Of a DNA stretch of 64,000 nt, positions 46,581-62,744 are shown piece after piece. The notes below the pieces were generated by a model. The model did not search any database. It had not been told where the DNA came from and saw only the letters and a program-made list of their open reading frames with translations. The DNA comes from Bacteroidales bacterium (GTDB lineage: Bacteria > Bacteroidota > Bacteroidia > Bacteroidales > JAADJA01): contig JAFGBL010000172.1 in NCBI GenBank assembly GCA_016933115.1, forward strand, positions 76 to 64,075. The letters run 5' to 3'. How positions within the stretch are numbered: position 1 is the first letter of the stretch; each line of letters starts with the position of its first letter. A program made the position numbers and the translations under genes.

Positions 46581-47663
46581 TCAATTCACCCGCCTCGCAA
46601 AATGCCTTGAATCCCCCCATTCCCCCAATTTAATCTTATAACCATTCAGCATATCCGATTCATTGATCTTCCGGATCAGATCATCCGCTTCGGTGAGGTA
46701 AGGTTTGTTTTCATAGAGGAAATAGTTCTCCCGGTATTTTAAGGGCGTTAGGTTCGGCATTAATACATTGGCACCGGCACGAATGGCTTGCAGCCGGCCA
46801 TCATCCACAAGGGAATCGAGTGCGGTGGCGGCGGCAATGTTGATGTCGGGCATCAAGATTCGTAAAACTGAAATCGTTAGCAGGGAAAGCTCCAGCCTTT
46901 CTTTTTTTGGCAATAATTGGTCCCTGGATTCAAATAACGGCGTATCCTTATGTTCGATATAGGGCCCCATGCCCACCATGTCGACATTGAGGGTTTTCAG
47001 CATCAGAAGGTCATCGACAAGGTTTCCGATGGTTTGGCCGGGCAGTCCGATCATCATGCCTGAGCCTACCTGATAACCGGTTTCTTTTAAATATTGCAAT
47101 GAATTCAACCGGTTAAGCAGGAAATGTTTTTTGTTGTTGGGATGGATCTTATAATACAACTCCGGATCTGAGGCTTCGAACCGCAACAGGTAACGATGGG
47201 CTCCGCTGTCGAACCACCTCTTATAAGTTTCTTTGGTTTGATCTCCGCAGGAAAGGGTGATCCCGAGTTTGCCTTTCGATAGCATTTTAATCTTTTGAAC
47301 CAGGTTACTGATGATTTCGATAAATTCCTGATCCGTCCGTTCTCCCGACTGTATCACCACTGAACCATAGTTGTTCTCAAAAGCATATTCGGCACAACGA
47401 AGCACTTCCTCTTCCTCGATACAGTAGCGTTCCACGTTTTTATTCCCCGCACGGATACCGCAATAGAAGCAGTTTTTTTCGCAGATATTCGAAAACTCGA
47501 TCAGTCCGCGGAGGTAAATTTCATTCCCGACTAATTCCGCTCTGACTTCCATAGCTTTTTGAAAGATCAAATCCCGCTCATTCTGATTTTGCACCGAAAG
47601 CAACCGGATCAGGTCTTCGCGCGAAAGCGATTCTTTTTCCAATATATGGGTTATGTCAGGCAT
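46581..47663 (-). CDS. hydE: [FeFe]-hydrogenase maturase HydE (radical SAM)
   Basis: RGLIEFSNICEKNCFYC, RYLLRFE, GANVLMPN and YFLYENK motifs; adjacent to hydF and hydG. Confidence 0.95.
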   Translation of the reverse strand: MPDITHILEKESLSREDLIRLLSVQNQNERDLIFQKAMEVRAELVGNEIYLRGLIEFSNICEKNCFYCGIRAGNKNVERYCIEEEEVLRCAEYAFENNYGSVVIQSGERTDQEFIEIISNLVQKIKMLSKGKLGITLSCGDQTKETYKRWFDSGAHRYLLRFEASDPELYYKIHPNNKKHFLLNRLNSLQYLKETGYQVGSGMMIGLPGQTIGNLVDDLLMLKTLNVDMVGMGPYIEHKDTPLFESRDQLLPKKERLELSLLTISVLRILMPDINIAAATALDSLVDDGRLQAIRAGANVLMPNLTPLKYRENYFLYENKPYLTEADDLIRKINESDMLNGYKIKLGEWGDSRHFARRVN

Positions 47664-48867
47664 ACACTTTCCGGAAAGGTTCCGTTACACGATCAAACAT
47701 ACCATTCACCCAGGCAATGGCCATACCGTAGTTGGAGATGGCAATTTCGGCATCTTTGGCAGGTTTCAGGCGGCTCCACAATTGTTTTCTTGTCACCATG
47801 CAGCCACCGCACTGGATCAGAAGTTTGTAGTCTTCCGGGTCACGGGTGATCTTGTCCAGACCGGCCACGATGTCGAAATCTATTTTTTTCCCGGTATATT
47901 CACTGATCCATTTCGGAAGTTTATAACGCCCGATATCGTCGCAGTTCACCTGGTGCGTGCATGATTCGAGGATCAGTACCCGGTCCCCATCCTGCAATTC
48001 CCCGATCTTCGGGGTTCCTTTCAGATAAGCCTCAAAATCGCCCCTGAACCGGGCCAGCATTATGCTGAAGCTCGTAAACGGAACAAAAGCCGGCACAATG
48101 TCTTTCATTTTTCCAAACACCTGGCTGTCGGTAATAGCGAGCTTGGGTTTGATGCCTGAAGTTTTGAAAAAATTCTCCACCTGGTCTTCCTTCAGCACAA
48201 TGTTGATGGCGTCGTTATCGAGCACATCGCGGATGGCCATCACCTGAGGCAGGATCATCCGTCCATCGGGCGCTTCATTGTCGATGGGGGTGATGAGCAG
48301 CACGTAATCGCCTTTTCCGATAAGATCGCCCAGTAATTTTGGTTTTTGAAAAACCGATTCGGGTATGGTGTTTTTTAAAGATGCAATTACCTTTTCCAGG
48401 TTATGTTTTTCTCTGGCGCTGAAATCGGTGAGTTCAGCCTTTGTGATCGTCTCAACACGGATCCGGGTTTTATCTTCCAGCGGTTGTTCGTCTGATTTAT
48501 TATGAACAAGGATATACGGAACTTCAAAATTATCAAAGGTTTTGATCAAATCTTCTTCAAACCCTTCGAACGTATTTTCTGAGATCATCAACACGGCACA
48601 ATCCACGGTTTTGAGAACCTGCAGTGATTTTTCAATCCGCTTTTCCCCGAGTTCCCCCACGTCATCAATTCCGGCAGTATCCACCACGATAGCCGGCCCG
48701 ATCCCGAATATCTCGATGGATTTTTTCACCGGGTCCGTAGTCGTGCCAGCCTGTTCGGAAACAATGGCGATCTCTTGTCCGACCAGCGCATTGATGAATG
48801 AGCTTTTGCCGGTGTTTCGCCTTCCGAATATGCCGATGTGGGGTTTGTTGTCGCGGGTTCTGTTCAT
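47656..48867 (-). CDS. hydF: [FeFe]-hydrogenase maturation GTPase HydF
   Basis: GRRNTGKSS, GTTTDPV, GRMILPQ, ESCTH..DIG and CGGCM motifs. Confidence 0.96.
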   Translation of the reverse strand: MNRTRDNKPHIGIFGRRNTGKSSFINALVGQEIAIVSEQAGTTTDPVKKSIEIFGIGPAIVVDTAGIDDVGELGEKRIEKSLQVLKTVDCAVLMISENTFEGFEEDLIKTFDNFEVPYILVHNKSDEQPLEDKTRIRVETITKAELTDFSAREKHNLEKVIASLKNTIPESVFQKPKLLGDLIGKGDYVLLITPIDNEAPDGRMILPQVMAIRDVLDNDAINIVLKEDQVENFFKTSGIKPKLAITDSQVFGKMKDIVPAFVPFTSFSIMLARFRGDFEAYLKGTPKIGELQDGDRVLILESCTHQVNCDDIGRYKLPKWISEYTGKKIDFDIVAGLDKITRDPEDYKLLIQCGGCMVTRKQLWSRLKPAKDAEIAISNYGMAIAWVNGMFDRVTEPFRKVYA

Positions 48868-48951
48868 TGTAGTTTGATTTAGTAAAAAATGGTCAGCAGT
48901 CCTTTCGGGCCGCCGACCTTGCTACGACAAATTAAATTTAAAAGTGTGTGT

Positions 48952-49029
48952 ATCGTTATTACCCTTACTACTGGGGAAGATTGCTTCGCTCCTGCGCACA
49001 AGCCAACTGTACTGGCTCGCAATGACGAT
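48952..49029. repeat. Partial copy of a palindromic intergenic element
   Basis: AGATTGCTTCG...CTCGCAATGACG matches the right arm of the element at 51736-51814; the left arm is mostly lost. Confidence 0.6.
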
Positions 49030-49053
49030 CGGATATGTGTGTTGTTTTTCATA

Positions 49054-50481
49054 TTAAAAATAAATATCCCGTTCACCCTGTTTGATCTTCTCAATGCGGT
49101 TGAGTAACTCATCCTTCCTTCCAAAACCATTCAGTTTTTCGATGTTTTCATGAACCACCTTCCAGCCTTTGATCCGGGTTTCGACCGGTGCATAATCGAG
49201 CAGGTACTCCACCAGCGTGAGGATGGCATTTGGGGTGCAATATCTTTTGATGAATCCCGGCACTGAAAACTCCATAAAATGCTGGCCTGTTCTGCCTTTC
49301 CGGTAACAGGCCGTGCAAAACGAAGGCAGGTATCCATGATCCAGCAACTCATCTATCACCTCATTCAAACTCCGGTCATCGCGGATCAGAAATTGCTCTT
49401 TGTCGAGATTCTGAGCCTTGTTGAATTCTTCTGCATAAGCGCCCAGTTCGATCTTTGTTCCGGCATCTATTTGCGAACAACCGAATTGCAGCACCTCATC
49501 CCTCACCTCCTTCGGCTCTCTTGCTGTCAGTATCATACCGGTGTAAGGAACGGCCAGCCTTAGAATAGCAATGATCCTGACAAACTCCTCATCCGAAACC
49601 AGGTAATCCTCATCAATGTCAATATCCGAAGCATTTTGCAAACGCGGAAATGAAATGGTATGGGGACCCACATTATAACAGGCTTCCAGATGGTTCACAT
49701 GCCTTACCAACCCCATCACCTCGTATCGCCAGTCGTATAATCCAAATAAAGCCCCGATTCCCACATCATCAATTCCGGCTTCAAAAGCAGTATCGAGCGA
49801 AGTGAGCCGGTATTCATAATCTGCCTTTTTCCCACCCTGATGGTATTTCCGGTATGTATCCGGATGATAGGTTTCCTGAAAAATCTGGTAAGTCCCGATG
49901 CCGGCTTCATGTACTTTTTTAAATCCATCCAGGTCCATGGGGGCCGCATTGATGTTTACCCGCCTGATCTCGCCGTTTCCTTTTTTCACCTGGTAAACCG
50001 TTCGAACCGTTTCAGCAATATAATCAGCCGAATAATTTTTGTGTTCCCCAAAAACCAGGATCAAACGTTTTTGCCCGTTTTCTTCCAGCGCTTCCACATT
50101 TTTCACGATCTCATCATGACTCAAAGTTCTTCGTTCAGCATGGGGATTAGACGCTCTGAACCCGCAGTATTTGCAGTTGTTTGAGCAGAAATTCCCGATA
50201 TAAAGCGGGGCAAACAATACAATTCGGTTTCCGTAAACATTTTCCTTCAGCGTTTTTGCTCCCTCTTTGATCAGTTCAATCAGTTCGGGGTCGGTGGTAT
50301 TTACCAGCACCGCCACATCCTGAAGGCTCAGCCTTTGTTTGCTGAGTGATTTTTCAATGATCTTTCCAACCACTTTACGGTCGGAAACAGCCGTTCCCAG
50401 CATCTTTTCAATTTCATCTGCATCTATGAACGGAATCCCGGGACGGTCTTCTATGTTATATTTTTCTGGTGTGAACTTCAT
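49054..50481 (-). CDS. hydG: [FeFe]-hydrogenase maturase HydG (radical SAM)
   Basis: FAPLYIGNFCSNNCKYC, FQETY, GPHTISFPR and the C-terminal CTACYR...CTPNA cluster. Confidence 0.97.
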   Translation of the reverse strand: MKFTPEKYNIEDRPGIPFIDADEIEKMLGTAVSDRKVVGKIIEKSLSKQRLSLQDVAVLVNTTDPELIELIKEGAKTLKENVYGNRIVLFAPLYIGNFCSNNCKYCGFRASNPHAERRTLSHDEIVKNVEALEENGQKRLILVFGEHKNYSADYIAETVRTVYQVKKGNGEIRRVNINAAPMDLDGFKKVHEAGIGTYQIFQETYHPDTYRKYHQGGKKADYEYRLTSLDTAFEAGIDDVGIGALFGLYDWRYEVMGLVRHVNHLEACYNVGPHTISFPRLQNASDIDIDEDYLVSDEEFVRIIAILRLAVPYTGMILTAREPKEVRDEVLQFGCSQIDAGTKIELGAYAEEFNKAQNLDKEQFLIRDDRSLNEVIDELLDHGYLPSFCTACYRKGRTGQHFMEFSVPGFIKRYCTPNAILTLVEYLLDYAPVETRIKGWKVVHENIEKLNGFGRKDELLNRIEKIKQGERDIYF

Positions 50482-50504: not shown

Positions 50505-51623
50505 TTAGTCCGGAATGGTCACCGTAAACTTTGAACCCACATCGGGCTGACTTTCCACCCTGATCTCCCCATCGTACAATTCCACCAGTTTTTTCACGAT
50601 GGAAAGCCCTAACCCGCTGCCGGTTATATTTTTTGTTTTCATGTTTTTGATCCTCACAAATTCACCGAAAAGTTTGGAAACCTCCTCTTCGGTCATCCCG
50701 ATGCCGGTGTCTGCCACCGTAATCTCCAGTTTGCCGTTTTGTTTTTTCAGCCCCACAATCACTTCTCCGCCATCGCGGTTGTATTTCACAGCGTTGGAAA
50801 GCAGGTTGTTGAAGATAATCTCGATTTCCCCGCGATCGGCATTGATATAAATCTCCTCTTCCTGAACCGGCTGAATTTTAACATTTCTCTGATTTGCCAA
50901 TGGTTCAATTGTGTCTCTGGCAATTCTAAAAACTTCAGTTATATCCACTGGTCTGAAATCGCGGGTTTTAACTCCAGATTCGATCTTCGTAAGGTCGAGC
51001 AAATCAGAGATAAGCGTTCTCATGCCTTTCAGCCTTTCAAGCGACCGTTCGATCATCATTTTGTAATCCCCGATGTTATCACCGACTTGTTTGTCTTTCA
51101 TGATCTGCAGGTATCCTTCGATTGCATTCACCGGGCTTTTTAACTCATGCGACAGCACCGACAGGAACTGGAAGCGCAATTGTTGTCCTTCCTCATTCAT
51201 TTTCCTGGAGATCCTTTTCAGGAAAAGGTGTTTGGTGATGTTTTCCATCGCGCTCTTCAACTCCTGCGGGGTGAAAGGTTTCGGGACAAAGTTAAAAGCC
51301 CCGTTGTTGGTTGCTTTCACTGCCAGATCGAGAGAAGCATAAGAAGTGATCATCATCACCTCGGCATCATAATTTTTTTTGTTGATATATTCCAGCACCT
51401 CGATGCCGTGGATGCCGGGAAGTTTATTGTCCAGCAAAACGATGTCGATCTGTTGGTTGTCGATGGTCTCAATGGCTTTTTCGCCGGTTTCGGCTTCAAT
51501 GATGCTGAAATCGAAATCTTCATCCATGAATGGGTAGCCCACCGTAAAGTTCTGAAGAATGCGGTTTATTCCTGAGCGGATACCTGGCTCATCGTCGACT
51601 ACAAGTACTTTTAGTGTTGCCAT
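50505..51623 (-). CDS. Hybrid receiver-histidine kinase
   Basis: Receiver (VVDDE, LLDNKLP, PKP), HisKA (SHELKSP) and HATPase (NAVKYN, DTGIG, GSGLGL). Confidence 0.93.
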   Translation of the reverse strand: MATLKVLVVDDEPGIRSGINRILQNFTVGYPFMDEDFDFSIIEAETGEKAIETIDNQQIDIVLLDNKLPGIHGIEVLEYINKKNYDAEVMMITSYASLDLAVKATNNGAFNFVPKPFTPQELKSAMENITKHLFLKRISRKMNEEGQQLRFQFLSVLSHELKSPVNAIEGYLQIMKDKQVGDNIGDYKMMIERSLERLKGMRTLISDLLDLTKIESGVKTRDFRPVDITEVFRIARDTIEPLANQRNVKIQPVQEEEIYINADRGEIEIIFNNLLSNAVKYNRDGGEVIVGLKKQNGKLEITVADTGIGMTEEEVSKLFGEFVRIKNMKTKNITGSGLGLSIVKKLVELYDGEIRVESQPDVGSKFTVTIPD

Positions 51624-51850: not shown

Positions 51851-52252
51851 CTAAATCTTCAACAATTTATTGATCTCCCTTTGCAACTGATCCGGCCGGA
51901 TGCCTTTTTCGAGGTACTGATCGGCTTTGATCCAATTTCGCTCTTCTTCGGTGTCGAGACCGAAGATCATCCCTGTTTCGGCAGTCACGGCTGTGGCAAT
52001 GATCACCGGTACATCGGGATATTTCTTTTTTATTTTGAAACTGAGGATAAATCCGCTGTCCTGGTTTTCCATCATCAGATCGAAAATGGCCAGGTTGGGC
52101 TTTTCGGTCTCCAGTAACTTTTCTCCTTCTTTCTGGCTTTCGGCTGTGATCGTATCAAATCCGAATCGCTCCACCTGCATCTTCATCTGCGTGAGGCTGT
52201 CGATATCATCGTCAACGATCATGATCTTTTTTCTTGCTTCCATTGCTATCAA
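51851..52252 (-). CDS. Single-domain response regulator
   Basis: IVDDD, FDLMM, AT and EK motifs; no output domain. Confidence 0.9.
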   Translation of the reverse strand: MIAMEARKKIMIVDDDIDSLTQMKMQVERFGFDTITAESQKEGEKLLETEKPNLAIFDLMMENQDSGFILSFKIKKKYPDVPVIIATAVTAETGMIFGLDTEEERNWIKADQYLEKGIRPDQLQREINKLLKI

Positions 52253-52254
52253 AT

Positions 52255-54243
52255 TTATAGTTCCCGTTTTCGCGGTATTGTAATTTTAAATGTTGTTCCT
52301 GTTGCCCCTTTTTCGGGATCAGCATTGGATTGTACCGTCACCTGGCCTTTGTGCATCTTCACAATGCCATAGATCAGCGGAAGGCCCAGGCCGGTTCCTT
52401 TACCCATTTCTTTTGTTGTAAAAAACGGAGTAAACAATTTATCCATATTTTCTTCGGGAATCCCGATACCTGTATCACTCACATCAATTTCAACTGTACT
52501 TCCGTTTCCTGAAAGAGCTACTGTCAATACTCCTCCGGCAGGCATGGCTTCCACGGCATTTTTTTCAAGATTGGTCAAAACCTGCATCATCTGGTCCTGA
52601 TCGAGCTCCAGCAACGGGTTGCTGAGTTCTGAAATAAATTCGATCTTCACACTTTCGGATTTGATCACCGTTTCCAGGCTATGCTTTACAAAAGATTCGA
52701 TGTTGGTTTCCTGCAGTCTCACCTGGTTTTTCCGGGCAAAGTTAAGGAGTCCGCCAACGATGCCCTTGCAGCGGTCGGCCTGTTCAACGATCAGTTGGAG
52801 GTCTTTACGGATCGGACTGTCTTCCGGTGCTTCATCTTTCAGGATGTTGGAATACATGGTGATCACTCCCAGCGGATTATTAAGTTCGTGCGCTATCCCT
52901 GCCGAAAGTTGTCCCATGCTCGCCAGCTTCTCCGATTGTTTAAGTGCCAATTGCGTAGTTGCCAGCTTATCATTCGATTCATTCAGTTCCTCGATGGATT
53001 TATGGAGTTTTTCGATGGTAAAAGGCAGGCACATTTCCGTTTCGGCCAATCCTTCCACAATGGCAATGGCATGATCCACACAGGTTTCATACCCGCAGGC
53101 ACCGCAATTCAGATGATCTTTAAGGGTATATTTTCCCATCTTAAGCAGTGCTTCTTCAATTTTCTTTTCATCGGGCAATGGAATGCGACGGTCGGCTGGT
53201 TTAAAATGCTGGCTCAGATCTACATCACCGAAGGTTTCCACCTGTTGTTGCCACTGCTCATTGTCCAGCCTGTTAAGCTTTTCACGAACATAATTGCTGA
53301 TTTGCGTGCGACGGGTGTACCGTTTTCCACCTTTCGACATACCCGGACCCATGATACACCCCTCGCAGCAAAGCAGTTCCAGGTGATGCGACTGCAACAA
53401 ACCGCTCTCAAACTCCTTTACGGCATCCCTGAAATTAACCCTTCCTTCCGCCACTACAATATTTCCTTCAGCAATATCGTCCGATCGGTTCACCGTTTGC
53501 AACATTCCCCGGCAAACCGGGAAAATAGCGCCTTTCCCGGCAAACGGCGGATCGAATTCCGATTCTTCGGCCTCTTCGGCAACAATACCTTCCGAAGCCA
53601 GCAGGTATCTTAATTCGGTAAATGTTATAGCGGCATCCACTTCGTCCGATTCTGCTTTTTTTGCAATACACGGCCCTATGAAAACCACTTTCAGGTTTTC
53701 GCCGTGTTTCTTCCGCAAAATCCTTGTAATGGCAACCATCGGTGAGGCAACAGGTGCCAGGTAAGGCACCAGCCCCGGATGATATTGCCGGATGTAATAC
53801 ACAATAGCAGGGCAATCGGAGGAGATATGGGGCTTCTCTCCATTCAAATCCATCAGCTTCTCATACTCACGCGCCACCATATCCGCTCCAAAAGCCACTT
53901 CATTCACCAAATCAAACCCTAATGAGCGAATCATGCCCACCAGTTTCTTAAAGTTCTTTATATCCGAAAATTCGGCTGCAAAACTCGGTGCCAGCAAGGC
54001 TGCTACCTTATGCTCCGAAGCCACCAAAGCCTTCACTTCCGGATTTGAGTTGTAATATACTTTCGCACCCTGACTGCATACTTTCACGCAGTTTCCACAT
54101 CCGATACACCGTTCGATCATCACCTCAGCCTGTCCGTTCATGATGCGGATCGCCTTCACCGGGCACTCTCTGACGCAGGTATAGCAAACCTTACACAGAT
54201 CTTTCTGCGTGTAAACGAGGTTGGTATGTGGGGTGTTGGACAT
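52255..54243 (-). CDS. Sensory [FeFe]-hydrogenase-like domain fused to a histidine kinase (group C1-like)
   Basis: Two N-terminal ferredoxin motifs; APSF; H-cluster-like motifs SSDCP, GPCIAKKAE and ELLCCEGCIMGPG; Cx2Cx4Cx16C FeS motif; HisKA (AHELNNP); HATPase (TTKEMGKGTGLGL). Confidence 0.88.
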   Translation of the reverse strand: MSNTPHTNLVYTQKDLCKVCYTCVRECPVKAIRIMNGQAEVMIERCIGCGNCVKVCSQGAKVYYNSNPEVKALVASEHKVAALLAPSFAAEFSDIKNFKKLVGMIRSLGFDLVNEVAFGADMVAREYEKLMDLNGEKPHISSDCPAIVYYIRQYHPGLVPYLAPVASPMVAITRILRKKHGENLKVVFIGPCIAKKAESDEVDAAITFTELRYLLASEGIVAEEAEESEFDPPFAGKGAIFPVCRGMLQTVNRSDDIAEGNIVVAEGRVNFRDAVKEFESGLLQSHHLELLCCEGCIMGPGMSKGGKRYTRRTQISNYVREKLNRLDNEQWQQQVETFGDVDLSQHFKPADRRIPLPDEKKIEEALLKMGKYTLKDHLNCGACGYETCVDHAIAIVEGLAETEMCLPFTIEKLHKSIEELNESNDKLATTQLALKQSEKLASMGQLSAGIAHELNNPLGVITMYSNILKDEAPEDSPIRKDLQLIVEQADRCKGIVGGLLNFARKNQVRLQETNIESFVKHSLETVIKSESVKIEFISELSNPLLELDQDQMMQVLTNLEKNAVEAMPAGGVLTVALSGNGSTVEIDVSDTGIGIPEENMDKLFTPFFTTKEMGKGTGLGLPLIYGIVKMHKGQVTVQSNADPEKGATGTTFKITIPRKREL

Positions 54244-54456: not shown

Positions 54457-56175
54457 TCACAACGGCACATCCCGCTTCTTATACTCCGTGTGCAACAGGT
54501 CATGACTCTTATGCCCGAGGGGTTCGCCAAGGAATTTTTCATAGAGTTCGATCACTTCCGGATTCTTGTGAGAAACCTTGATGGAATCACGGTCATCAAT
54601 ATCATACAAGGATTTTAACCTTGACATAATTGCACTTTCATCGGCACCGATGTGCTGTCCGCCGCCGGCAATACAGCCGCCCGGACAAGCCATGATCTCG
54701 ATGAAATGAATGTCATTTCTTCCATCCCTGATCTCGTCCAGCAATATTTTTGCATTTTGTAATCCACTCACTACGGCAATTCCCAACTGCAGGTCACCAA
54801 TCCGGATCTGTGTTTCTTTTCTTCCGGTTAATCCACGAACAGCATGAATTTTGAATTCCGTCAGTTCTTTGCCGGTGAGTTTAAAATAGGCTGTGCGCAA
54901 GGCTGCTTCCATCACTCCACCCGAACCGCCGAACAGTTTACCTGCAGAACTGCGGATGCCATGCGGTGAATCGGTCATTTCAGGATCGATGTTGTGCATA
55001 TCCACACCGTAAAGCCTGATCAACTGGGCCAGTTCGCGGGTTGTCATCACGGCATCCACATCCGTGATACCCTGATGGGTCATATCTTCGCGCTGAGCCT
55101 CGAATTTTTTTGCCGTACAAGGCATGATCGACACAGAATAAATATCCTCAGGTTTTGTCGCGATTTTTTCAGCGAAATAAGATTTGATAATAGCTCCCAG
55201 CATTTGCTGCGGTGATTTGCAACTCGAAACATTGGGCAGAAAATCAACAGAAAATTCTTCGGCATATTTTACCCAGGCGGGACAGCAACTGGTGATCAGC
55301 GGCAAAGGTCCGTTATTGGTAATCCGGTGGATCAGTTCAGCCGATTCTTCCATGATCGTGAGGTCAGCCGAAAAACTGGTGTCGAAAACGTAGTCGAATC
55401 CGATCTTTCGCAAAGCGGCGTTCATGATGCCGTTTACATCCCTTCCGGGTTCCATGCCGAATTCTTCAGCCAGTGAAACCGAAATAGCGGGAGCATATTG
55501 AATCACAACCTTTTTGGAAGGATTGTTCAACGCCATCTGGATTTCATTCAAATGACATTTTTCGCTCAAAGCGCCGGTCGGGCAAACCATGATACATTGG
55601 CCGCAATTCACACAACTCGAAGTATTCAATCCTTTGTTGAATGAAGTCCCGATCAGGGTTTTGCTTCCGCGATTAATATAGTCAATGGCCGAAACACCCA
55701 TCACTTCCTCACACACCCTCACACAACGTCCGCAAAGGATACATTTGTCCGGATCGCGGGTAATACTTGGACTTGAAAGATCCTTGTTGAAATTATTTTT
55801 CACACCTGAAACCCTTCGTTCGGTCACATGGTGTTCGACTGCCAGATCCTGCAGGGTACAATTCCCGTTCCGGACACAGTAAAGACAATCATCGGGGTGA
55901 TTTGAAAGCAGCAGTTCCACAATCATCTTTCGGGCCTCAATAACCCGTGTCGTATGCGTTTTGACCTTCATGCCCTCTTCCACCGGATAGGAGCAGGATG
56001 TAACCAACCTCCCCGTATTTTCGTGTTCAACCACACACATCCTGCACGCTCCCGACGGAAAATAATTTTTCATGTGGCAAAGCGTAGGCACCTTGATCCC
56101 GTTGCGATTCATCACATCCAGGATGGTTTCGCCCGCTTTGGCCTCAAATATCTTATTATTGACTTCAATATTCAT
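54457..56175 (-). CDS. hydA: [FeFe]-hydrogenase catalytic subunit, group A3
   Basis: 2Fe-2S, His-ligated 4Fe-4S and 2x4Fe-4S domains; TSCCPAW, MPCTAKKFE and EIMACPGGCIAGGG motifs; SHDLLHT tail. Confidence 0.97.
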   Translation of the reverse strand: MNIEVNNKIFEAKAGETILDVMNRNGIKVPTLCHMKNYFPSGACRMCVVEHENTGRLVTSCSYPVEEGMKVKTHTTRVIEARKMIVELLLSNHPDDCLYCVRNGNCTLQDLAVEHHVTERRVSGVKNNFNKDLSSPSITRDPDKCILCGRCVRVCEEVMGVSAIDYINRGSKTLIGTSFNKGLNTSSCVNCGQCIMVCPTGALSEKCHLNEIQMALNNPSKKVVIQYAPAISVSLAEEFGMEPGRDVNGIMNAALRKIGFDYVFDTSFSADLTIMEESAELIHRITNNGPLPLITSCCPAWVKYAEEFSVDFLPNVSSCKSPQQMLGAIIKSYFAEKIATKPEDIYSVSIMPCTAKKFEAQREDMTHQGITDVDAVMTTRELAQLIRLYGVDMHNIDPEMTDSPHGIRSSAGKLFGGSGGVMEAALRTAYFKLTGKELTEFKIHAVRGLTGRKETQIRIGDLQLGIAVVSGLQNAKILLDEIRDGRNDIHFIEIMACPGGCIAGGGQHIGADESAIMSRLKSLYDIDDRDSIKVSHKNPEVIELYEKFLGEPLGHKSHDLLHTEYKKRDVPL

Positions 56176-56192: not shown

Positions 56193-58145
56193 TTAAGCAA
56201 CCACACTGATCGCATCAAATTTACAGGCTTCTTCGCAGGAACCGCAACCGATGCATTTATCTTCCACGATGAAATGCGGTGCTTTTTTGGTTCCGATGAT
56301 GGCTCCGGTAGGGCATTTTCTTGCACATACCGTGCAACCTGTACATTTATCCACATTTATCCTGAAAGTCCTCAATTCAGTGCAAACTCCCGGCTGACAT
56401 TTCCTTTCGTAGATATGCGATTCGTATTCATCGCGGAACCACTTGATCGTGCTGAGCACCGGGTTTGGAGCTGTTTGTCCGAGTCCGCAAAGCGAAGTTT
56501 CTTTGATCACCTTTCCGAGTTTTTCAAGTTGTATGATCCCTTTGAACCGTTGCAGCGCTTCTTTTTCGCTGTTTCCGTTGGGTTTATGGGTGATGCTTTC
56601 CAAAATCTCAAGCATCCTTCTTGTACCTTCACGACAGGGAATACATTTCCCGCAGCTTTCGCGCTGGATGAAATCCATGAAAAATTTGGCTACATCCACC
56701 ATGCAGGTGTCTTCATCCATCACCACCAGGCCACCGGAACCCATCATGGCTCCAACACTGATCAGTGATTCATAATCAATCTGGATGTCGAGGTTTTGTT
56801 CGGTGATACAGCCGCCCGAAGGACCGCCGATCTGCACCGATTTGAATTTTTTGTTGTTGGGAATTCCACCGGCAATATCAAAAATGATCTCGCGCACCGT
56901 CGTTCCCATCGGGATTTCCACAAGACCCGTCAGGTTGATTTTCCCGGAAAGGGCAAAAACCTTGGTTCCTTTGCTTTTTTCAGTCCCGATTGAAGCAAAC
57001 CATTCTTCTCCACGAGCCAATATTTCCGGCACATTCGACAGGGTTTCCACATTGTTGATGATGGTCGGTTTGCCGAACAATCCGCTGATGGCAGGAAACG
57101 GTGGCCTCGGTCTCGGCATTCCGCGCATTCCTTCGATACTGTGGATCAAAGCCGTTTCTTCACCACAAACAAATGCTCCGGCTCCCATCTTGATAATGAT
57201 GTCGAAACTAAAACCGCTATCGAAAATGTTTTTCCCAAGCAAACCATAATCTCTGGCCAGGTTCAGGGCAATTTTTAACCGTTCGATGGCCAACGGATAT
57301 TCGGCACGGATGTAAACATAGCCTTTGGTAGCGCCGATTCCGTAGGCAGAGATCGCCATGCCTTCGATGAGTCTGTGCGGATCGCCTTCGATCACAGCCC
57401 GATCCATGAATGCTCCCGGATCTCCCTCATCGGCATTGCAAATCAGGTATTTTTGATCGGCTTCGGCGCCATTGGCAAACTTCCATTTTTTCCCGGTTGG
57501 GAACCCTCCGCCGCCACGGCCGCGTAATCCGCTCTTTTCAATCTTGTCGCATACTTCAATGGAAGTATAGGTTTTCAGTGTATCCAGGAAACTTTTGTAG
57601 CCGCCCCTAGCAATGTATTCATTAATATCGATGGGGTCAACAATTCCGCAGTTTTTCAGAACGATCCGCTTTTGCGGTGCAAAAAACGGGTGTTCATCAA
57701 TAAAAGGTACATTCTCCCAGGCTTCCAGTTTTTCGGAACGGAATTGTCCCAGTATGTTCGGATTGGTTGAATCAAGTGAGAAAACGCTCTCAAGGACTTC
57801 ATTCACCTTATCGCCGGTTACATTTTTAAAAGAGATACGGTTTTTCCCCGGAAGCCGCACATCGAGCAGAGGTTCAGCAGCACAAAAACCGATACAGCCC
57901 ACCTTGATCACTTCTACATCCAGCTCATGATCTTCGATGAACCGCTGCGTTTCGAGCCAGGTCTTTTCAGCCCCGGCGCCCAGTCCGCAGGTTCCGGTTC
58001 CGATGAAGATCACCGGTTTGCTGACAATATCACGCCTCAGGTCTGACAATTCCCCGATCACGAACGGATCCACTTCATGAGCCGGGCCGTTCAGCACCTT
58101 TTCGATCAGGAATTCCTTCATATTCATTGTTCTTGCCGTTTCCAT
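56193..58145 (-). CDS. hydB: Diaphorase (NuoF-like) subunit of the trimeric [FeFe]-hydrogenase
   Basis: N-terminal thioredoxin-like Cys domain, GLRGRGGGGFP, NADEGDPGAFMD, CGEETAL, ESCGKCIPCREG and C-terminal 2x4Fe-4S. Confidence 0.95.
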   Translation of the reverse strand: METARTMNMKEFLIEKVLNGPAHEVDPFVIGELSDLRRDIVSKPVIFIGTGTCGLGAGAEKTWLETQRFIEDHELDVEVIKVGCIGFCAAEPLLDVRLPGKNRISFKNVTGDKVNEVLESVFSLDSTNPNILGQFRSEKLEAWENVPFIDEHPFFAPQKRIVLKNCGIVDPIDINEYIARGGYKSFLDTLKTYTSIEVCDKIEKSGLRGRGGGGFPTGKKWKFANGAEADQKYLICNADEGDPGAFMDRAVIEGDPHRLIEGMAISAYGIGATKGYVYIRAEYPLAIERLKIALNLARDYGLLGKNIFDSGFSFDIIIKMGAGAFVCGEETALIHSIEGMRGMPRPRPPFPAISGLFGKPTIINNVETLSNVPEILARGEEWFASIGTEKSKGTKVFALSGKINLTGLVEIPMGTTVREIIFDIAGGIPNNKKFKSVQIGGPSGGCITEQNLDIQIDYESLISVGAMMGSGGLVVMDEDTCMVDVAKFFMDFIQRESCGKCIPCREGTRRMLEILESITHKPNGNSEKEALQRFKGIIQLEKLGKVIKETSLCGLGQTAPNPVLSTIKWFRDEYESHIYERKCQPGVCTELRTFRINVDKCTGCTVCARKCPTGAIIGTKKAPHFIVEDKCIGCGSCEEACKFDAISVVA

Positions 58146-58609
58146 TACACTTCCTTGTTTTTCAGATTTTCGATGATCTCAACCAGCGACTGTTCGGTGA
58201 CCTTTGCATGAAAATTCCCATTGATGTTGATAACGGGAGCCAATCCGCAGGCCCCGATACAAGCCACCACTTCGATGCTGAACATACCGTCGCGGGTCGT
58301 TTGACCTGCCTTTGCTTTGAGTAATTTTTCGAGTTTATCCAGTACGGTTGCCGATCCAAGCACATGACATGCTGTTCCGCGGCACACCTGGATGTGGTAT
58401 TTACCTTTGGGTTCGAACCTGAACTGGTTGTAAAAGGTCGCAACGCCATAGATCTTGCTGGTTGGGATACCCAGCCTCCTACCCACTTCAGCAATCGCAC
58501 GCTGAGAGAGAAACCCTTCATTTTCCTGTATTTCCTGAAGAATGGGTATCAGGCTGTCGCGTTTTGCGTCTCCTCTTGCTTCCAGTATTTCCGCTATCCC
58601 TTTTTTCAT
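58145..58609 (-). CDS. hydC: 2Fe-2S (NuoE-like) subunit of the trimeric [FeFe]-hydrogenase
   Basis: GVATFY, CRGTAC and CIGAC motifs; TAATG overlap with hydB. Confidence 0.95.
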   Translation of the reverse strand: MKKGIAEILEARGDAKRDSLIPILQEIQENEGFLSQRAIAEVGRRLGIPTSKIYGVATFYNQFRFEPKGKYHIQVCRGTACHVLGSATVLDKLEKLLKAKAGQTTRDGMFSIEVVACIGACGLAPVININGNFHAKVTEQSLVEIIENLKNKEV

Positions 58610-58650: not shown

Positions 58651-59169
58651 TTAATTTGAGTGGAAACTTACCTTTTTGCCAAGCAGTTCTTTGATCTCGG
58701 GTAAAAGTTTTTTCGAGTCAACGGGCTTTTTCAGGAATCCATCCACCGGCAGCCAGATGGTTTTGCCATCGTCGTTGCGATAATCAATGCCTGCTTTTCC
58801 GCTTACGATATCCTTCATGAGGATCACCTGCAATTCCTTGTATTTGGGATCCTGACGGAATTCACGTGCCATTTCCCTTACACTTTCCTTGGTGGTGGTG
58901 AAAACTTCGATGGAGGTTTGCATCAGAATAGGCATGTTTCTAAAAGCCTGTTCGTTCACCAGCGCTTCAGCCAGTTCGAAACCTTCGTAATGGGTTGTCA
59001 TCATCACGTCGAGGATGGCCAGGTCGGGATGGATTTCACGGGCCAGTTGCAGGCCTTCATCCTTATTGTTTGCCGAAAATACCTCGTAACCTTCATTCTC
59101 AAGAATGGTGCTGATTACATTGATGATATCGATGTCGTCGTCTACGATTAAAATTTTTTGTGTGTTCAT
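58651..59169 (-). CDS. Single-domain response regulator with an internal insertion
   Basis: IVDDD, LDVMM, QT and KKP motifs, with an unusually long segment between QT and KKP. Confidence 0.88.
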   Translation of the reverse strand: MNTQKILIVDDDIDIINVISTILENEGYEVFSANNKDEGLQLAREIHPDLAILDVMMTTHYEGFELAEALVNEQAFRNMPILMQTSIEVFTTTKESVREMAREFRQDPKYKELQVILMKDIVSGKAGIDYRNDDGKTIWLPVDGFLKKPVDSKKLLPEIKELLGKKVSFHSN

Positions 59170-59194
59170 GATACTGTTTTTTCAGGGTTCATAT

Positions 59195-59632
59195 TTAATT
59201 AACTAATGAATGATTATCGAATCTGAGATTCACTGTTTGCAGGCCGGGCGACAGGTAAAACCTTTCTTCCTTGCTGTTCACGATCTCATGCAACAGGTCA
59301 TAATTATCGTTTGATTTTGCGAGATAACCGCTCACACCGGCTGTGATCATTTTATTGATATAACGCTGGTTTTCGAGTGAAGAAAAAGCGATAAACCGGA
59401 TGTTTGGAAATTTCCGGTGGCCGATCAGTGTAGCTTCAAAGCCGCCCATTCCAGTCATAGCCACATCCAGGAAAACGATGTCGGCTTTTTCATTTTCAAG
59501 CAGTTCGAGCAGTTGCAGACCATTTTCCACCTCTCCAATAATTTTAACATTCCCGATGTTGAGAAGAATTCTTTTCAATCCTTCGCGGAAATATTTATTA
59601 TTGTCGGCGATTATGATCTTCTGTTTTTTCAC
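59195..59632 (-). CDS. NarL-type receiver-only protein (no HTH)
   Basis: Similar to the N-terminal half of 59996..60631; FLDVAM retained; GTG start; ends before any HTH. Confidence 0.8.
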   Translation of the reverse strand: MKKQKIIIADNNKYFREGLKRILLNIGNVKIIGEVENGLQLLELLENEKADIVFLDVAMTGMGGFEATLIGHRKFPNIRFIAFSSLENQRYINKMITAGVSGYLAKSNDNYDLLHEIVNSKEERFYLSPGLQTVNLRFDNHSLVN

Positions 59633-59648
59633 TTTATCAATTTTGATC

Positions 59649-59718
59649 CAAAAGTAGCATCTGACCCCCCCCTACACAAGAGCGAAAGACGCAAAGGGAA
59701 AACAGGTGAAAATACCTG
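59649..59718 (-). promoter_or_regulatory. Putative promoter of the hydrogenase operon with an upstream palindrome
   Basis: Minus-strand -7 box TACTTTTG (59649-59656); CTTG 20 bp upstream; palindrome CAGGT-N6-ACCTG at 59703-59718. Confidence 0.5.
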
Positions 59719-59995
59719 AGATGAAATTCCAATTTTCGTTGTTTCAATTAGTTATATGTGATAATTTGTTAATTGTAAAGCTTTGAATGGGTATTGATAA
59801 AATTCCAAAATCCAATAAAAGGGTTGTTGTTATTCAAATAACAGCAAGGGTGAAATTTTGTATTTTATTTGAAAAAAATGAAAATAAATTTTTAGCAGGT
59901 GTTTTACACGGGTGGATGGTTTTGGAGTTTTACGAAGTAATCGGAAAAACCTATTATCCCCGGTCTGTGGCGAACGCGAACCTAACTGGTCAATT

Positions 59996-60631
59996 TTAGT
60001 TCACCAACCCATTCTTTATCGCAAACATCACCAAATTGGGTGCATTTTTAGCGCCGGTCTTTTCAAACAAGCGGGCACGAAAGCCATCCACAGTGCGGCT
60101 GCTGACGCCGAGAAAATTGGCAATCTCAACATTGGAGTAGCCTTTGCAGATCAACTCCAACACTTCCTGTTCGCGGTCGGTAAGGTTAATTGATGTGTCC
60201 TTGTGTTTGGGCTTGAGGTACATATTGACAGAACTCATGAACTCTTCGGAAAAATAACTTTCATCTTCGAGCACAAGGTTTATGGCACGCTCAAGTTCTT
60301 CTGAAGTAGTTTTTTTAAGGAGAAATCCAGATGCGCCCGCTTCGATCATTTTATTGAAATAACTGATCTCCTCGAACATGGTAAGGGCAATGACCTTGAT
60401 TCCGGGATATTTGGCCGACACTTTTTTGGTAGCTTCGATGCCGTCCATCACGGGCATTTTGATGTCCATCAAAATTACATCGGCGGGTTGTTTTTTGAGA
60501 AGTTCGAGCAATTCATTGCCATTGGAGGCTTCCCCAACAACTTTTACAAAATCGATCTCATTAAGAATCGTATACAATCCTTTCCTGAAAATAACGTGGT
60601 CGTCGACGATGATTATTTTAGCTATTTCCAT
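59996..60631 (-). CDS. NarL/FixJ (LuxR-HTH) response regulator
   Basis: VDDH, MDIKMP and LTDREQEVLELICKGYSNVEIA motifs. Confidence 0.95.
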   Translation of the reverse strand: MEIAKIIIVDDHVIFRKGLYTILNEIDFVKVVGEASNGNELLELLKKQPADVILMDIKMPVMDGIEATKKVSAKYPGIKVIALTMFEEISYFNKMIEAGASGFLLKKTTSEELERAINLVLEDESYFSEEFMSSVNMYLKPKHKDTSINLTDREQEVLELICKGYSNVEIANFLGVSSRTVDGFRARLFEKTGAKNAPNLVMFAIKNGLVN

Positions 60632-62744
60632 TGTTTAGTTGTTTTGGTTTCAGTTTTAAAGATGCGATCAAAAACATCCCTTCGCCCGGTTTGGTGTTGA
60701 TGTCCACCGTTCCCTTCACCGATTTGATCTTGTTTACTATATTATTCAATCCCAATCCCGAATTTTGCTTCATCGCTTCTTCCAAGTCAAAACCGATACC
60801 GTCATCGCGGTAATACAAAATTATTTGATTTTCATAACTTTTCAGTTCAATCTTGATGTTTTTGGCCGATGCATGCCGAATCGTATTGTTGATCAACTCC
60901 TTTACTGACTGATAGAGCACAGTCTCCTCAATACCCCGCTGCTCAATGGTATACTGATAAGTAAACACCTCAATGTTGATCGACTCCGTTTTTTTTATAA
61001 AGTTGCAAAAATCATTGACTGCAGCGGCCAATCCGAAATCCTGCAGAATATTGGGCCGGATGTTGCGTGAGATCGTCCGGGTAGAAGTAATTGCCATATC
61101 AACCAGTTCTTCAATGTTTCGCACAGCTTCTTCTTCATCGATCTTTTTGAAATTTTTCTTTTTCAGAAGATCGGTGTACAATTTAACGGTTGAAAGAATT
61201 GGTGCAAGATCATCGTGGAGATCAGCCGCAAAACGCTTTCTTTCGTTTTCCTCGGTTTGAATAATGGTAGTCAGGATGCGGTCTTCCACTTCCTTGCGCT
61301 CGGAAATATCACGGGCAATAGTAAGAATCATTTTTTCACCTTTGTAGTCAAACACACGGCTTTTCATTTCAACCGGAATGGTTAAACCACTTTTGGATAT
61401 GATCTCAGATTCATACTGATGTTGGCCAAATTTTCGGATCCTATTGATGTAAGTATCTACCTTTTGTTTTAACAGCTCAGGTTTGATTTGCCTGATATTC
61501 ATCTTCATAAATTCCTCACGCGAATATCCAAGGTCATCACAAGCGACCTGGTTCACTTCGATAAAGTTGCCTTCAAAATCGATCACAAAAATATCATCGG
61601 AACTATTGTTGAACAGGGTCTGAAAATGGCGTTCGGATTGTTCGAGTGCCTGCTGCGTTTGTTTAAGCTTTTTGGAGGAACGTTCAAGTTGCGATAGGAA
61701 TTTCCTTACATTCTCAGCCGTAATAAAATATACAAAAACCGATAAGGCAAGAATAATAAAACCTGCAATTATCAGTGAATTATAGATCACCTCGCGAACA
61801 AGTGAACCCGTTTCGTCTTTCAGGGGAACTGCGGCAGCAATGTAGACCTTGAAATCGGGATAATAATCCCATGCAGCGATTTTTTTAATCCTGTCGCGTT
61901 TCAAAGTATAAGTCGCTACTCCTGAAGGTTTTGAAAGAATGGTTTCGATGATCGCCTCATCAGTCCACAATTCGCCGGTAGCGTAGGGATGCACTATGAA
62001 ACGCCCGGTTTCATCCAACACAAATGGGAATCCTTTTTTTCCGATTTTCAGGGAAATGATTTTCTGATGTAACTCTTCAATATCTTTTTCCCTGTCACCT
62101 ACATATAACATTCCAATAATTTCATTTCCTCTATAAATGGGTTCATATGCTGTAATATACCAACTATCAACCACAAAGGCCCTTCCAATGTAGGTTTGAC
62201 CTTTTTCCACAGTTTTTACAACGGGTGAATCATTGGGGATAAAAGTGCCAACCGCACGATTGCCATCAGTTTTCATCACGTTGGTCGAAATCCTCATGTA
62301 TCCGATGTCGATCTTCTGGAAAATAGTAGCCGTACCTCCCACCAGTTTGTGAATATCATCGACGAAATTATAATTTTGGTATAGAGATTTCCCATTGTAT
62401 TTCCATACTTTTACCGTTGCGCTGTGGGTTGAACCCGTGACCTGGTTCAGGACGGGAATCCTTACTGTTTCATTTCCAATGGTGAGTTCTCCGTTATAAA
62501 ACAACCGGTGGGCGACTTTCAGGTCTGATTTCACCTTGGCCAGTTTCAGGTCGCGCTCCCGCTCAAACATCTTTTTCAGAGTTTGGACTTCCAGGGTCAA
62601 ATGCCTTTCAAGTGAGTCATTGATATTTTTTTTCAGGTTATTGACAGAAAAAAGTGTTACCGCACTTATTGCTACAACAATTCCAGTTATAATTGGAAGA
62701 TATAAACGAAACTTTGGTGACAACCATTTTTTCTCTTTAAACAT
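60618..62744 (-). CDS. Membrane sensor histidine kinase (Cache-type periplasmic domain, PAS, HisKA_3)
   Basis: Two TM helices flank GGTATIFQ..RISTNV..RAVGT..GRAFVV..YITAYEP (Cache_3/Cache_2-like). PAS domain, EENERKRFAADLHD, DDGIGF and GLGL follow. Confidence 0.92.
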   Translation of the reverse strand: MFKEKKWLSPKFRLYLPIITGIVVAISAVTLFSVNNLKKNINDSLERHLTLEVQTLKKMFERERDLKLAKVKSDLKVAHRLFYNGELTIGNETVRIPVLNQVTGSTHSATVKVWKYNGKSLYQNYNFVDDIHKLVGGTATIFQKIDIGYMRISTNVMKTDGNRAVGTFIPNDSPVVKTVEKGQTYIGRAFVVDSWYITAYEPIYRGNEIIGMLYVGDREKDIEELHQKIISLKIGKKGFPFVLDETGRFIVHPYATGELWTDEAIIETILSKPSGVATYTLKRDRIKKIAAWDYYPDFKVYIAAAVPLKDETGSLVREVIYNSLIIAGFIILALSVFVYFITAENVRKFLSQLERSSKKLKQTQQALEQSERHFQTLFNNSSDDIFVIDFEGNFIEVNQVACDDLGYSREEFMKMNIRQIKPELLKQKVDTYINRIRKFGQHQYESEIISKSGLTIPVEMKSRVFDYKGEKMILTIARDISERKEVEDRILTTIIQTEENERKRFAADLHDDLAPILSTVKLYTDLLKKKNFKKIDEEEAVRNIEELVDMAITSTRTISRNIRPNILQDFGLAAAVNDFCNFIKKTESINIEVFTYQYTIEQRGIEETVLYQSVKELINNTIRHASAKNIKIELKSYENQIILYYRDDGIGFDLEEAMKQNSGLGLNNIVNKIKSVKGTVDINTKPGEGMFLIASLKLKPKQLNNGNS

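Follow-up and report, generated by a model that had tools for sequence, protein, structure and literature searches.

What might a sensory-type [FeFe]-hydrogenase do with an aspartate at the position where the catalytic enzymes carry their proton-transfer cysteine (Cys299 in CpI)? This question is raised by a gene in a 64,000-nucleotide stretch of DNA from a Bacteroidales bacterium (assembly GCA_016933115.1, contig JAFGBL010000172.1, positions 76 to 64,075), referred to here as the window. The gene (52255..54243, ATG start; all window features described below, like this one, lie on the minus strand) encodes a protein of 662 amino acids (aa), hereafter the sensor, in which a sensory-type [FeFe]-hydrogenase domain (H-domain) is joined to a HisKA/HATPase histidine kinase, as identified from the open reading frame, Pfam domains, and fold matches. 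We found that the aspartate, Asp143, is fixed across a lineage of Bacteroidales. Our reading of the whole, which we hold to be probable with some reservation, is that the protein is a soluble, H-cluster-based H2/redox sensor kinase controlling the adjacent bifurcating hydrogenase, with Asp143 as a local proton acceptor or hydrogen-bond partner.

Asp143 and the residues conserved with it

The minus strand around the Asp143 codon (gat, 53815..53817) reads atc tcc tcc gat tgc cct, such that the L1 motif of the sensor is S141-S-D143-C144-P. D143 pairs with the first cysteine of TSCCP both in HMMER (against PDB chain 8a6t_A) and in MAFFT. An earlier reading of the window from its letters alone (the sequence-only reading) had reported SSDCP here and TSCCP in the neighboring HydA, and both hold.

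In a word-index protein search, 7923 of the 8000 scored candidates reached E <= 1e-10, a count that includes matches to either half of the query. The best 120 of these are 64-100% identical to the sensor and all have the H-domain, PF04060, HisKA, and HATPase in precomputed Pfam annotations; xSDCP is found in 117 (the other 3 are unmatched by the pattern), GPCxxKKxE in 120, and ExxCCxxC in 105. A scan of one genome per species matched at least 596 stretches, 565 of which encode a relative, indicating that the lineage is large. The best 80 loci are 56-87% identical and come nearly all from metagenome-assembled genomes labeled Bacteroidales, Bacteroidota, Lentimicrobium, Rikenellaceae, or Prolixibacteraceae, the exceptions being one Sphingobacteriia and one Omnitrophica. 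The L1 residue is Asp in 79/79 of the loci that cover the region (L061 is cut by a contig end), encoded by GAT in 53 and GAC in 26; because both codons are in use, selection maintains Asp143, and recent common descent does not by itself account for it. When the 120 proteins and 80 loci were merged and 8 duplicates removed, 191 distinct rows resulted, and Asp143 is present in 190/190 rows that cover the site (one row has a gap).

In the wider family, the picture is different. When residues 1-420 were run exhaustively with HMMER against the representatives of 50%-identity clusters, 963 hits reached E <= 1e-30, and the best 150 have at L1 Ala (52), Pro (24), Thr (21), Ser (17), Cys (14), Asn (8), His (4), Asp (2), Phe (2), a gap (2), or Tyr, Leu, Ile, or Val (1 each). 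The two Asp representatives are short fragments of 283 and 273 aa, 65% and 56% identical to the sensor. A kinase is detectable with the query's kinase half (phmmer, E <= 1e-3) in 44 of these 150, and none of the 44 has Asp at L1 (Pro 15, Thr 11, Ala 8, Ser 4, Asn 2, His 2, Phe 1, and Leu 1). The alignment of homologs at L1 confirms the sequence-only reading in that the aspartate is natural, and corrects it in that the residue is not peculiar to this protein: it is lineage-wide, while absent from the other kinase-fused representatives.

For phylogenetic placement, a FastTree analysis was based on 160 rows: the query, the window HydA as outgroup, 144 representatives covering the region with 300 residues or more, and 14 hand-picked loci spanning the identity range (6 short representatives and 66 loci were left out). 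All 15 Asp rows fall on one side of a branch with support 99, requiring one change, and lie inside a 40-row clade (support 98) whose other members are mostly of the Thr and Asn types; this is a fast tree in which the supports are local only and the outgroup branch is long. On the sequences compared, Asp143 arose once and is a trait of the whole Bacteroidales lineage. Kinase-fused relatives at E <= 1e-90 occur in 24 of 401 genomes drawn at random from the phylum, and among the 23 with a parsed L1 (L097 is unmatched by the pattern) Asp occurs in 2, namely, the source genome and G131 of the same class. The Pro (12), Ala (5), and Ser (4) relatives are from other classes; this sample is sparse and serves distribution only.

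Within the Asn-type sister clade (P0130, P0133, P0139, P0150, P0162, and others), the equivalent of Lys358 is often Ala, Asn, His, or Gln, and L1/L2 in some cases lack their Pro or Cys (P0158). It may therefore be that part of the wider family does not bind a [2Fe] subsite.

Clade markers were defined by comparing the 190 Asp rows with 146 other representatives, as positions with one residue in at least 90% of the clade and at most 15% elsewhere. They include D143, S199, E201, R245, C292, M298, and H391. Position 245 (codon 53509..53511) is Arg in 189/191 clade rows, written with five codons from both Arg codon families, and is Gly in group A and in 73% of the other representatives. Two features specific to the Asp clade follow immediately on the universal glutamate of L2, E198: a hydroxyl residue at position 199 (Ser 180 and Thr 10, i.e., 190/191 rows) and Glu201 (187/191). 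Arg245, the Cys-Cys doublet, M298, and H391 are shared with the Thr-type sister clade, in which Arg245 is likewise conserved; the aspartate therefore arose on a background that already had Arg. In our reading of the corresponding loop, IFPVCRGM of the sensor aligns with IFGxxGGVM of group A, which puts Arg245 two residues before the position of Val423 in CpI; the latter would be the position of Glu252 in TamHydS. We consider Arg245 a candidate ion-pair partner of Asp143, the two being probably charge-paired, and Arg245 and the hydroxyl at 199 may both be partners of the aspartate.

The Cys-Cys doublet itself lies in L3 (Cys292 codon 53365-53367) and is found in the Asp and Thr clades. Cys292 is present in 184/191 rows, and other sensors have Phe, Ala, or Tyr at this position.

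The same residues could be read as purely structural, with Asp143 shaping the pocket through a buried salt bridge to Arg245 and handling no proton, a task that Thr and Arg would perform in the sister clade. Such a role fits the greater age of Arg245, the pairing of Thr with Arg in 10 of the 21 Thr-type representatives, and the Gly at 245 in the Ala and Pro types (A/G 46 and P/G 24). However, Thr cannot form a salt bridge, so Arg245 needs no carboxylate partner, and the switch to Asp comes with the clade-specific hydroxyl at 199 and Glu201, which hints at a polar network rather than a single ion pair. We regard a purely structural aspartate as unlikely.

Another possibility, put forward in the sequence-only reading as a "working proton path," is that Asp143 heads a functional proton-transfer pathway, such that the sensor would turn over H2 appreciably and differ from HydS mainly in its relay. 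Engineered Cys-to-Asp variants are the natural point of comparison. CpI C299D, CaI C298D, and CrHydA1 C169D carry the same change at the same site and keep the cofactor and partial activity (PMC9563086): 10-58% of H2 evolution, as given for CaI C298D and CrHydA1 C169D, and 0.02-4% of H2 oxidation (Table 3 therein). CpI C299D has also been crystallized (6glz), and the strong purifying selection on the aspartate would suit a working pathway. These variants, however, are point mutants with the full relay and both methionines, whereas the aspartate of the sensor is natural and stands with Gly353, Leu497, and Arg245 (Met353 and Met497 both being lost) and without the relay. From L1 to the conserved S167-P168, the sensor aligns with CpI without gaps, so that Ser319 of CpI corresponds to Ala163, which is Ala in 174/191 rows. 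For Glu279 and Glu282, HMMER places E126 and K129 at the two positions, respectively; MAFFT places E126 with the Glu before Glu279, Y127 with Glu279, and K129 with Glu282; and an ungapped reading places V123 with Glu279 and E126 with Glu282. In all three alignments, none or one of the two glutamates falls on a Glu (at E126, 160/191 rows have Glu and 19 have Lys), and the partner of Arg286 is Leu each time. With these residues missing, the group A relay is not retained beyond its first residue, and nothing in the sequence past Asp143 supports a path. The relay is likewise not retained in TmHydS and TamHydS (PMC10407848). Where catalytic group A enzymes have TSCCP, Met353, Met497, and Glu279/Ser319/Glu282/Arg286, the sensor has Asp143, Gly190, Leu291, and, in the relay, Ala163 for Ser319, Leu for Arg286, and at most one of the two glutamates. 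We do not think that Asp143 heads a group-A-like relay for fast turnover, and appreciable turnover through such a pathway seems to us very improbable. Most likely, Asp143 serves as a local proton acceptor or hydrogen-bond partner of the azadithiolate (adt) amine.

Domain architecture and relation to known sensory hydrogenases

At the N-terminus of the sensor, a ferredoxin-like domain with two [4Fe-4S] sites (residues 10-60, 54064..54216; Pfam Fer4) has its cysteines at C17/20/23/27 and C46/49/52/56, which are near-invariant in a 62-sequence alignment (A1). The H-domain follows (residues 79-300, 53344..54009; Pfam Fe_hyd_lg_C, PF02906, E 7.3e-46, 157 bits against a cut-off of 22.1) and holds P86-S87, L1, and L2. 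The C-terminal Cx2Cx4Cx16C motif (53029..53106; C380, C383, C388, and C405) lies in an iron-sulfur (FeS) domain matched by PF04060 (residues 378-407); it is invariant in A1, is found in 120/120 close homologs, and represents an accessory [4Fe-4S] site typical of sensory [FeFe]-hydrogenases (PMC8163306). The kinase core (52267..52917) consists of HisKA (443-506, 51.6 bits) and HATPase_c (548-659, 88.5 bits). Its phospho-acceptor His452 (codon 52888-52890) is near-invariant in A1, and H452, N558/N562, D590/G592/G594, F607/F608, and G616/G618/G620 are each at least 90% conserved there. The H-box histidine, the N, G1, F, and G2 boxes, and a fold made up of a dimerization and histidine phosphotransfer (DHp) domain and a catalytic ATP-binding domain are those of HisKA-type (NtrB/ZraS-like) kinases.

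In an AlphaFold2 model built on A1 (mean predicted local distance difference test score 88.6, predicted template modeling score 0.67; the model contains no cofactor), residues 406-471 (52831..53028) form a single predicted helix according to DSSP. This helix begins directly after C405, the last cysteine of the C-terminal motif, carries H452, and joins the last cluster ligand to the DHp domain. A second helix (477-504) completes the DHp, followed by an alpha/beta ATP-binding domain. Because residues 406-471 are one helix, there is no room for a PAS fold, and the Pfam scan of the 662-aa protein found no PAS family at E <= 0.001. A Foldseek search against PDB matched the first ~430 residues to [FeFe]-hydrogenases, with CbA5H (8zqd_A, E 3.9e-22) as the best hit and DdH, the HydA of HydABC, and CpI, including its C299D variant 6glz, as further matches; the kinase part matched the cytoplasmic domain of ZraS (9jfj_A, 34% identity, template modeling score 0.77 normalized by target length). 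The hits listed by the PDB sequence search and by the fold search do not include any named sensory (group C or D) hydrogenase, so they provide no template for the Asp143 pocket. The Pfam scan, the model, and the ZraS match bear out a hydrogenase-kinase fusion in which, as the sequence-only reading described, the FeS domain runs without a PAS domain directly into an NtrB-type HisKA-HATPase.

The fusion itself is already catalogued. With HisKA and HATPase_c in the same polypeptide as a sensory-type H-domain, the sensor belongs by architecture to HydDB group C1, "histidine kinase-linked (putative)," which was defined in 2016 (PMC5037454, Table 1). A C1-type Bacteroidales example beside an Hnd hydrogenase, Petrimonas mucosa ING2E5A_0849, is also in print (PMC7768429). 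The sensor passes no NCBIfam model: it stays below the cut-offs of AtoS (the best, 193.5 of 646 bits), ZraS (177.5 of 479), and FeFe_hydrog_B1 (171 of 450), and it scores 102.5 bits against the cut-off of 405.95 for the group A hydrogenase model, which places it outside group A.

Do the motifs of the H-domain still frame an H-cluster? L2 reads GPCIAKKAE (residues 190-198, 53650..53676), with Gly in place of Met353 and with Cys192, Lys195, and Glu198 kept, and it is followed by the clade-specific Ser199 and Glu201. L3 reads ELLCCEGC (residues 289-296, 53356..53379), with Leu in place of Met497, the extra Cys292 where the neighboring HydA has Ala, and the ligand candidates Cys293 and Cys296, whose spacing (C293-x-x-C296) is one residue less than in group A. 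The corresponding motifs of HydA are TSCCP, MPCTAKKFE, and EIMACPGGC. The ligand set of C144, C192, C293, and C296, together with K195 (Lys358) and E198 (Glu361), is present: C192, C293, and C296 are invariant in A1, C144 and E198 are at least 90% conserved, and Lys195 and Pro86-Ser87 are near-invariant. The two methionine substitutions and the retention of the four cysteines and the L2 lysine had been read correctly from the sequence, and the equivalent of Glu361 can be added to them.

These changes could mean that the sensor holds only [4Fe-4S] clusters without the [2Fe] subsite, as in Nar1/Narf-like proteins, and reports the redox state of ferredoxin or NADH instead of H2. Three residues that frame the [2Fe] subsite in group A enzymes are replaced (Cys299 by Asp, Met353 by Gly, and Met497 by Leu), L3 is one residue shorter, and the C-terminal cluster of TamHydS does not respond to H2, staying oxidized under 1 atm H2 (PMC13104023). 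On the other side stand the near-invariant cysteine ligands, Lys195, Glu198, and Pro86-Ser87, and the position of the gene between hydA and hydGFE in most relatives. Moreover, with comparable substitutions, TmHydS and TamHydS still bind an H-cluster and react with H2 (PMC8163306 and PMC10407848). A purely FeS-based redox sensor is accordingly one that we consider improbable.

The closest known systems include TmHydS and RaHydS, PAS-containing putative H2 sensors (M2f, group C). The sensor shares with them the two N-terminal [4Fe-4S] sites, an H-domain without the relay cysteine, the replacement of Met353 by Gly, the Cx2Cx4Cx16C cluster, and a gene next to hydABC (PMC8163306). It differs in having Asp and Leu where these proteins have Ala at the Cys299 site (Ala131 in TmHydS, PMC10407848, as the sequence-only reading had stated along with the partial activity of the Cys-to-Asp mutants) and Ser at Met497, and in the single helix that takes the cluster domain straight to the kinase where these have a PAS domain after the cluster (PMC8163306 and PMC10407848). 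TamHydS (M2e, group D) is similar to the sensor in the lack of a PAS domain, the replacement of Met497 by Leu, the C-terminal [4Fe-4S] site, and a gene adjoining a bifurcating hydrogenase, the TamHydS gene being located upstream of that hydrogenase. Unlike the sensor, it has no kinase fusion, and it carries Ala137 at L1 and Ser at Met353. In TamHydS, a carboxylate near the adt amine, E252, is important, and a hydrogen bond from it to this amine has been suggested (PMC10407848). It is located on a different loop, whereas the carboxylate of the sensor is at L1 itself; the equivalent of E252 in the sensor would be Met/Leu247, by a correspondence drawn through Val423 of CpI, and position 247 is Leu or Met in 182/191 rows. 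Of the hydroxyl at Met353 and the Glu252/Glu289 path that mark group D/M2e (PMC8163306 and PMC10407848), the sensor has Gly190 at the former and, in L3, Glu289.

Regulatory [NiFe]-hydrogenases with the HoxJ/HupT kinase (HydDB [NiFe] group 2b, "histidine kinase-linked," PMC5037454) offer a parallel in which a hydrogenase serves as the H2 receptor of a two-component system. These enzymes are slow, and their two-component system controls hydrogenase genes. Their metal site and fold are unrelated to those of the sensor, and their hydrogenase and kinase are separate proteins, joined via a PAS-like domain in HoxJ (PMC8163306), whereas both parts are one polypeptide here.

Gene neighborhood

All genes from 62744 down to 46581 are on the minus strand, in the order of a Cache-PAS-HisKA_3 kinase, a LuxR-type regulator, two receivers, hydCBA, the sensor, a stand-alone receiver (REC), a REC-kinase, and hydGFE. 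The hydrogenase upstream of the sensor consists of hydC (58145..58609; NuoE-like [2Fe-2S] subunit), hydB (56193..58145; NuoF-like flavin/FeS subunit), and hydA (54457..56175), the catalytic [FeFe]-hydrogenase with canonical TSCCP, which scores 803 bits against the NCBIfam model NF040763 ("NADH-dependent [FeFe] hydrogenase, group A6"; cut-off 765). Downstream, a 133-aa stand-alone receiver (51851..52252) starts 2 bp past the stop codon of the sensor and is likely its cognate phospho-acceptor. It is followed by a 372-aa REC-HisKA-HATPase hybrid kinase (50505..51623, from Pfam), the second tier of the cascade proposed below, and by the H-cluster maturases (46581..50481) hydG (49054-50481), hydF (47656-48867), and hydE (46581-47663), whose NCBIfam equivalog scores all exceed the cut-offs (HydG 503 of 312, HydF 478 of 326, and HydE 330 of 255 bits).

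This arrangement is conserved among the 80 species-level genomes. Downstream of the sensor, REC is present in 78/80 and REC with REC-kinase in 75/80. On the upstream side, hydA is the direct neighbor in 71/80 and hydCBA is found in 64/80, while hydG follows the REC-kinase in 55/80; contig ends cut several of the loci that lack these genes. As to transcription signals, a scan gave 38 sigma-70-like sites (29.9 +/- 5.8 in shuffles) and 19 terminator-like sites (19.8 +/- 3.8 in shuffles), counts that are uninformative. The promoters of Bacteroidota differ from the scanned sigma-70 consensus. Among the terminator-like sites, only a hairpin after hydE (46496-46482) is suggestive.

The Cache-PAS-HisKA_3 kinase, the LuxR-type regulator, and one or two stand-alone receivers (58651-62744) lie directly upstream of hydC, and the same block recurs there in the closest relatives (e.g., L005, L006, L009, L010, L057, and L081). 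A second two-component system may thus feed the same hydrogenase cluster. A second sensory-type hydrogenase paralog is found in 26/80 related loci. These paralogs are mostly ~620 aa and have Cx2Cx4Cx16C in 25/26, the exception being a 148-aa fragment in L058; their L1 reads TSMCPV, TANCPA, TTVCPV, or similar, or is unmatched by the pattern. The paralog is divergent from hydCBA, i.e., upstream of hydC on the opposite strand, in 25 loci (L024, L027, L029, L034-L041, L043-L045, L047, L049-L051, L056, L058, L065, L069, L074, L078, and L083), and downstream on the same strand in L059. The window has no such paralog, and the two receivers, LuxR regulator, and Cache kinase take its place upstream of hydC. 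L034, the contig labeled "Omnitrophica WOR_2 bacterium," carries a Bacteroidales-type locus (61% identity) with the same gene order and the divergent paralog, and could be a mis-binned contig or a transfer. The source assembly (G000; 4.47 Mb, 88% complete) has one further hydrogenase on contig C155 (L084 5861-11360, minus strand), with HydA (584 aa), a HydB-like protein (597 aa), HydC (188 aa), and a small stand-alone HATPase_c protein (182 aa), and this cluster includes no sensory hydrogenase.

Proposed role of the sensor and its implications

Taken with the gene neighborhood, our preferred reading of an H-cluster-based sensor kinase suggests the following course of events. The [2Fe] subsite would be installed by HydEFG from the same cluster. 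H2, by being bound or heterolytically split or by way of the redox poise that it sets, would then alter the state of the H-cluster and the FeS clusters, and this change would reach the kinase via the C-terminal cluster domain and the helix, switching autophosphorylation. The phosphate would move to the translationally coupled 133-aa receiver and on to the REC-kinase, and the cascade would tune the adjacent bifurcating hydrogenase HydABC and the maturases, in their expression or in their activity. Cofactor binding, the H2 response, the contact between Asp143 and Arg245, and the regulatory target are all putative.

Several points weigh against this reading. The group A relay residues beyond position 299 are absent from the sensor. 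H2 sensing is termed putative even for HydS (PMC8924675). Because the C-terminal cluster of TamHydS is not reduced by H2, a redox relay through the C-terminal cluster is doubtful, and the signaling route of TamHydS is described as unresolved (PMC13104023). The conserved core of the loci contains no DNA-binding output protein, so the regulated target is inferred from adjacency only. Biochemical work on the kinase-fused C1 form was not found in the open-access literature.

A more specific mechanism can be imagined, in which Asp143/Arg245, Ser/Thr199, and Glu201 form a dedicated, closed site for parking a proton next to the adt amine. The splitting of one H2 would be stoichiometric, the carboxylate keeping the proton and the clusters the electron, and the charge shift would reach His452 mechanically, by way of the C-terminal cluster domain and the helix of 66 residues. 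We consider this version unlikely; if true, it would represent a direct single-polypeptide switch from H2 to phosphorylation, with a chemistry unlike that of the Ala-type HydS sensors.

The sensor resembles what has been described for group C1 in combining a sensory-type H-domain with a histidine kinase, beside a bifurcating group A hydrogenase in a Bacteroidales host. Work on Hydrogenedentota from 2024 located C1 genes beside A3 hydrogenases in 21/53 cases, with H-cluster motifs hardly found in them, and noted inconsistency within C1 in both H-cluster motifs and kinase domains (PMC11406978). The lineage-wide aspartate at L1, with Arg245 and Ser199, sets the sensor apart from these descriptions, and is unmentioned in the texts searched. 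We found no mention of a natural Asp at the Cys299 site in the open-access literature text (figures and supplements were outside this search), the matches listed for the motif strings in such text include no hydrogenase paper, and no paper on a Bacteroidales HydABC sensory kinase of this kind was found, as judged by titles and the beginnings of abstracts. Neither the class nor the general idea is new, and the surprise is limited accordingly. Within the open-access literature text, what appears undescribed is the combination of a lineage-wide Asp at a mechanistically central residue with co-conserved polar residues of its own.

For the question of how sensory [FeFe]-hydrogenases transmit their signal, a kinase-fused sensor has a built-in biochemical read-out, namely, autophosphorylation with and without H2. 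The proton-transfer cysteine has so far been probed by enzymologists through mutagenesis only (PMC9563086), and the Asp lineage represents a natural experiment at this residue, which couples protons to the cofactor. Since the sensor is encoded beside a bifurcating hydrogenase, it probably bears on the H2 output of these fermenters.

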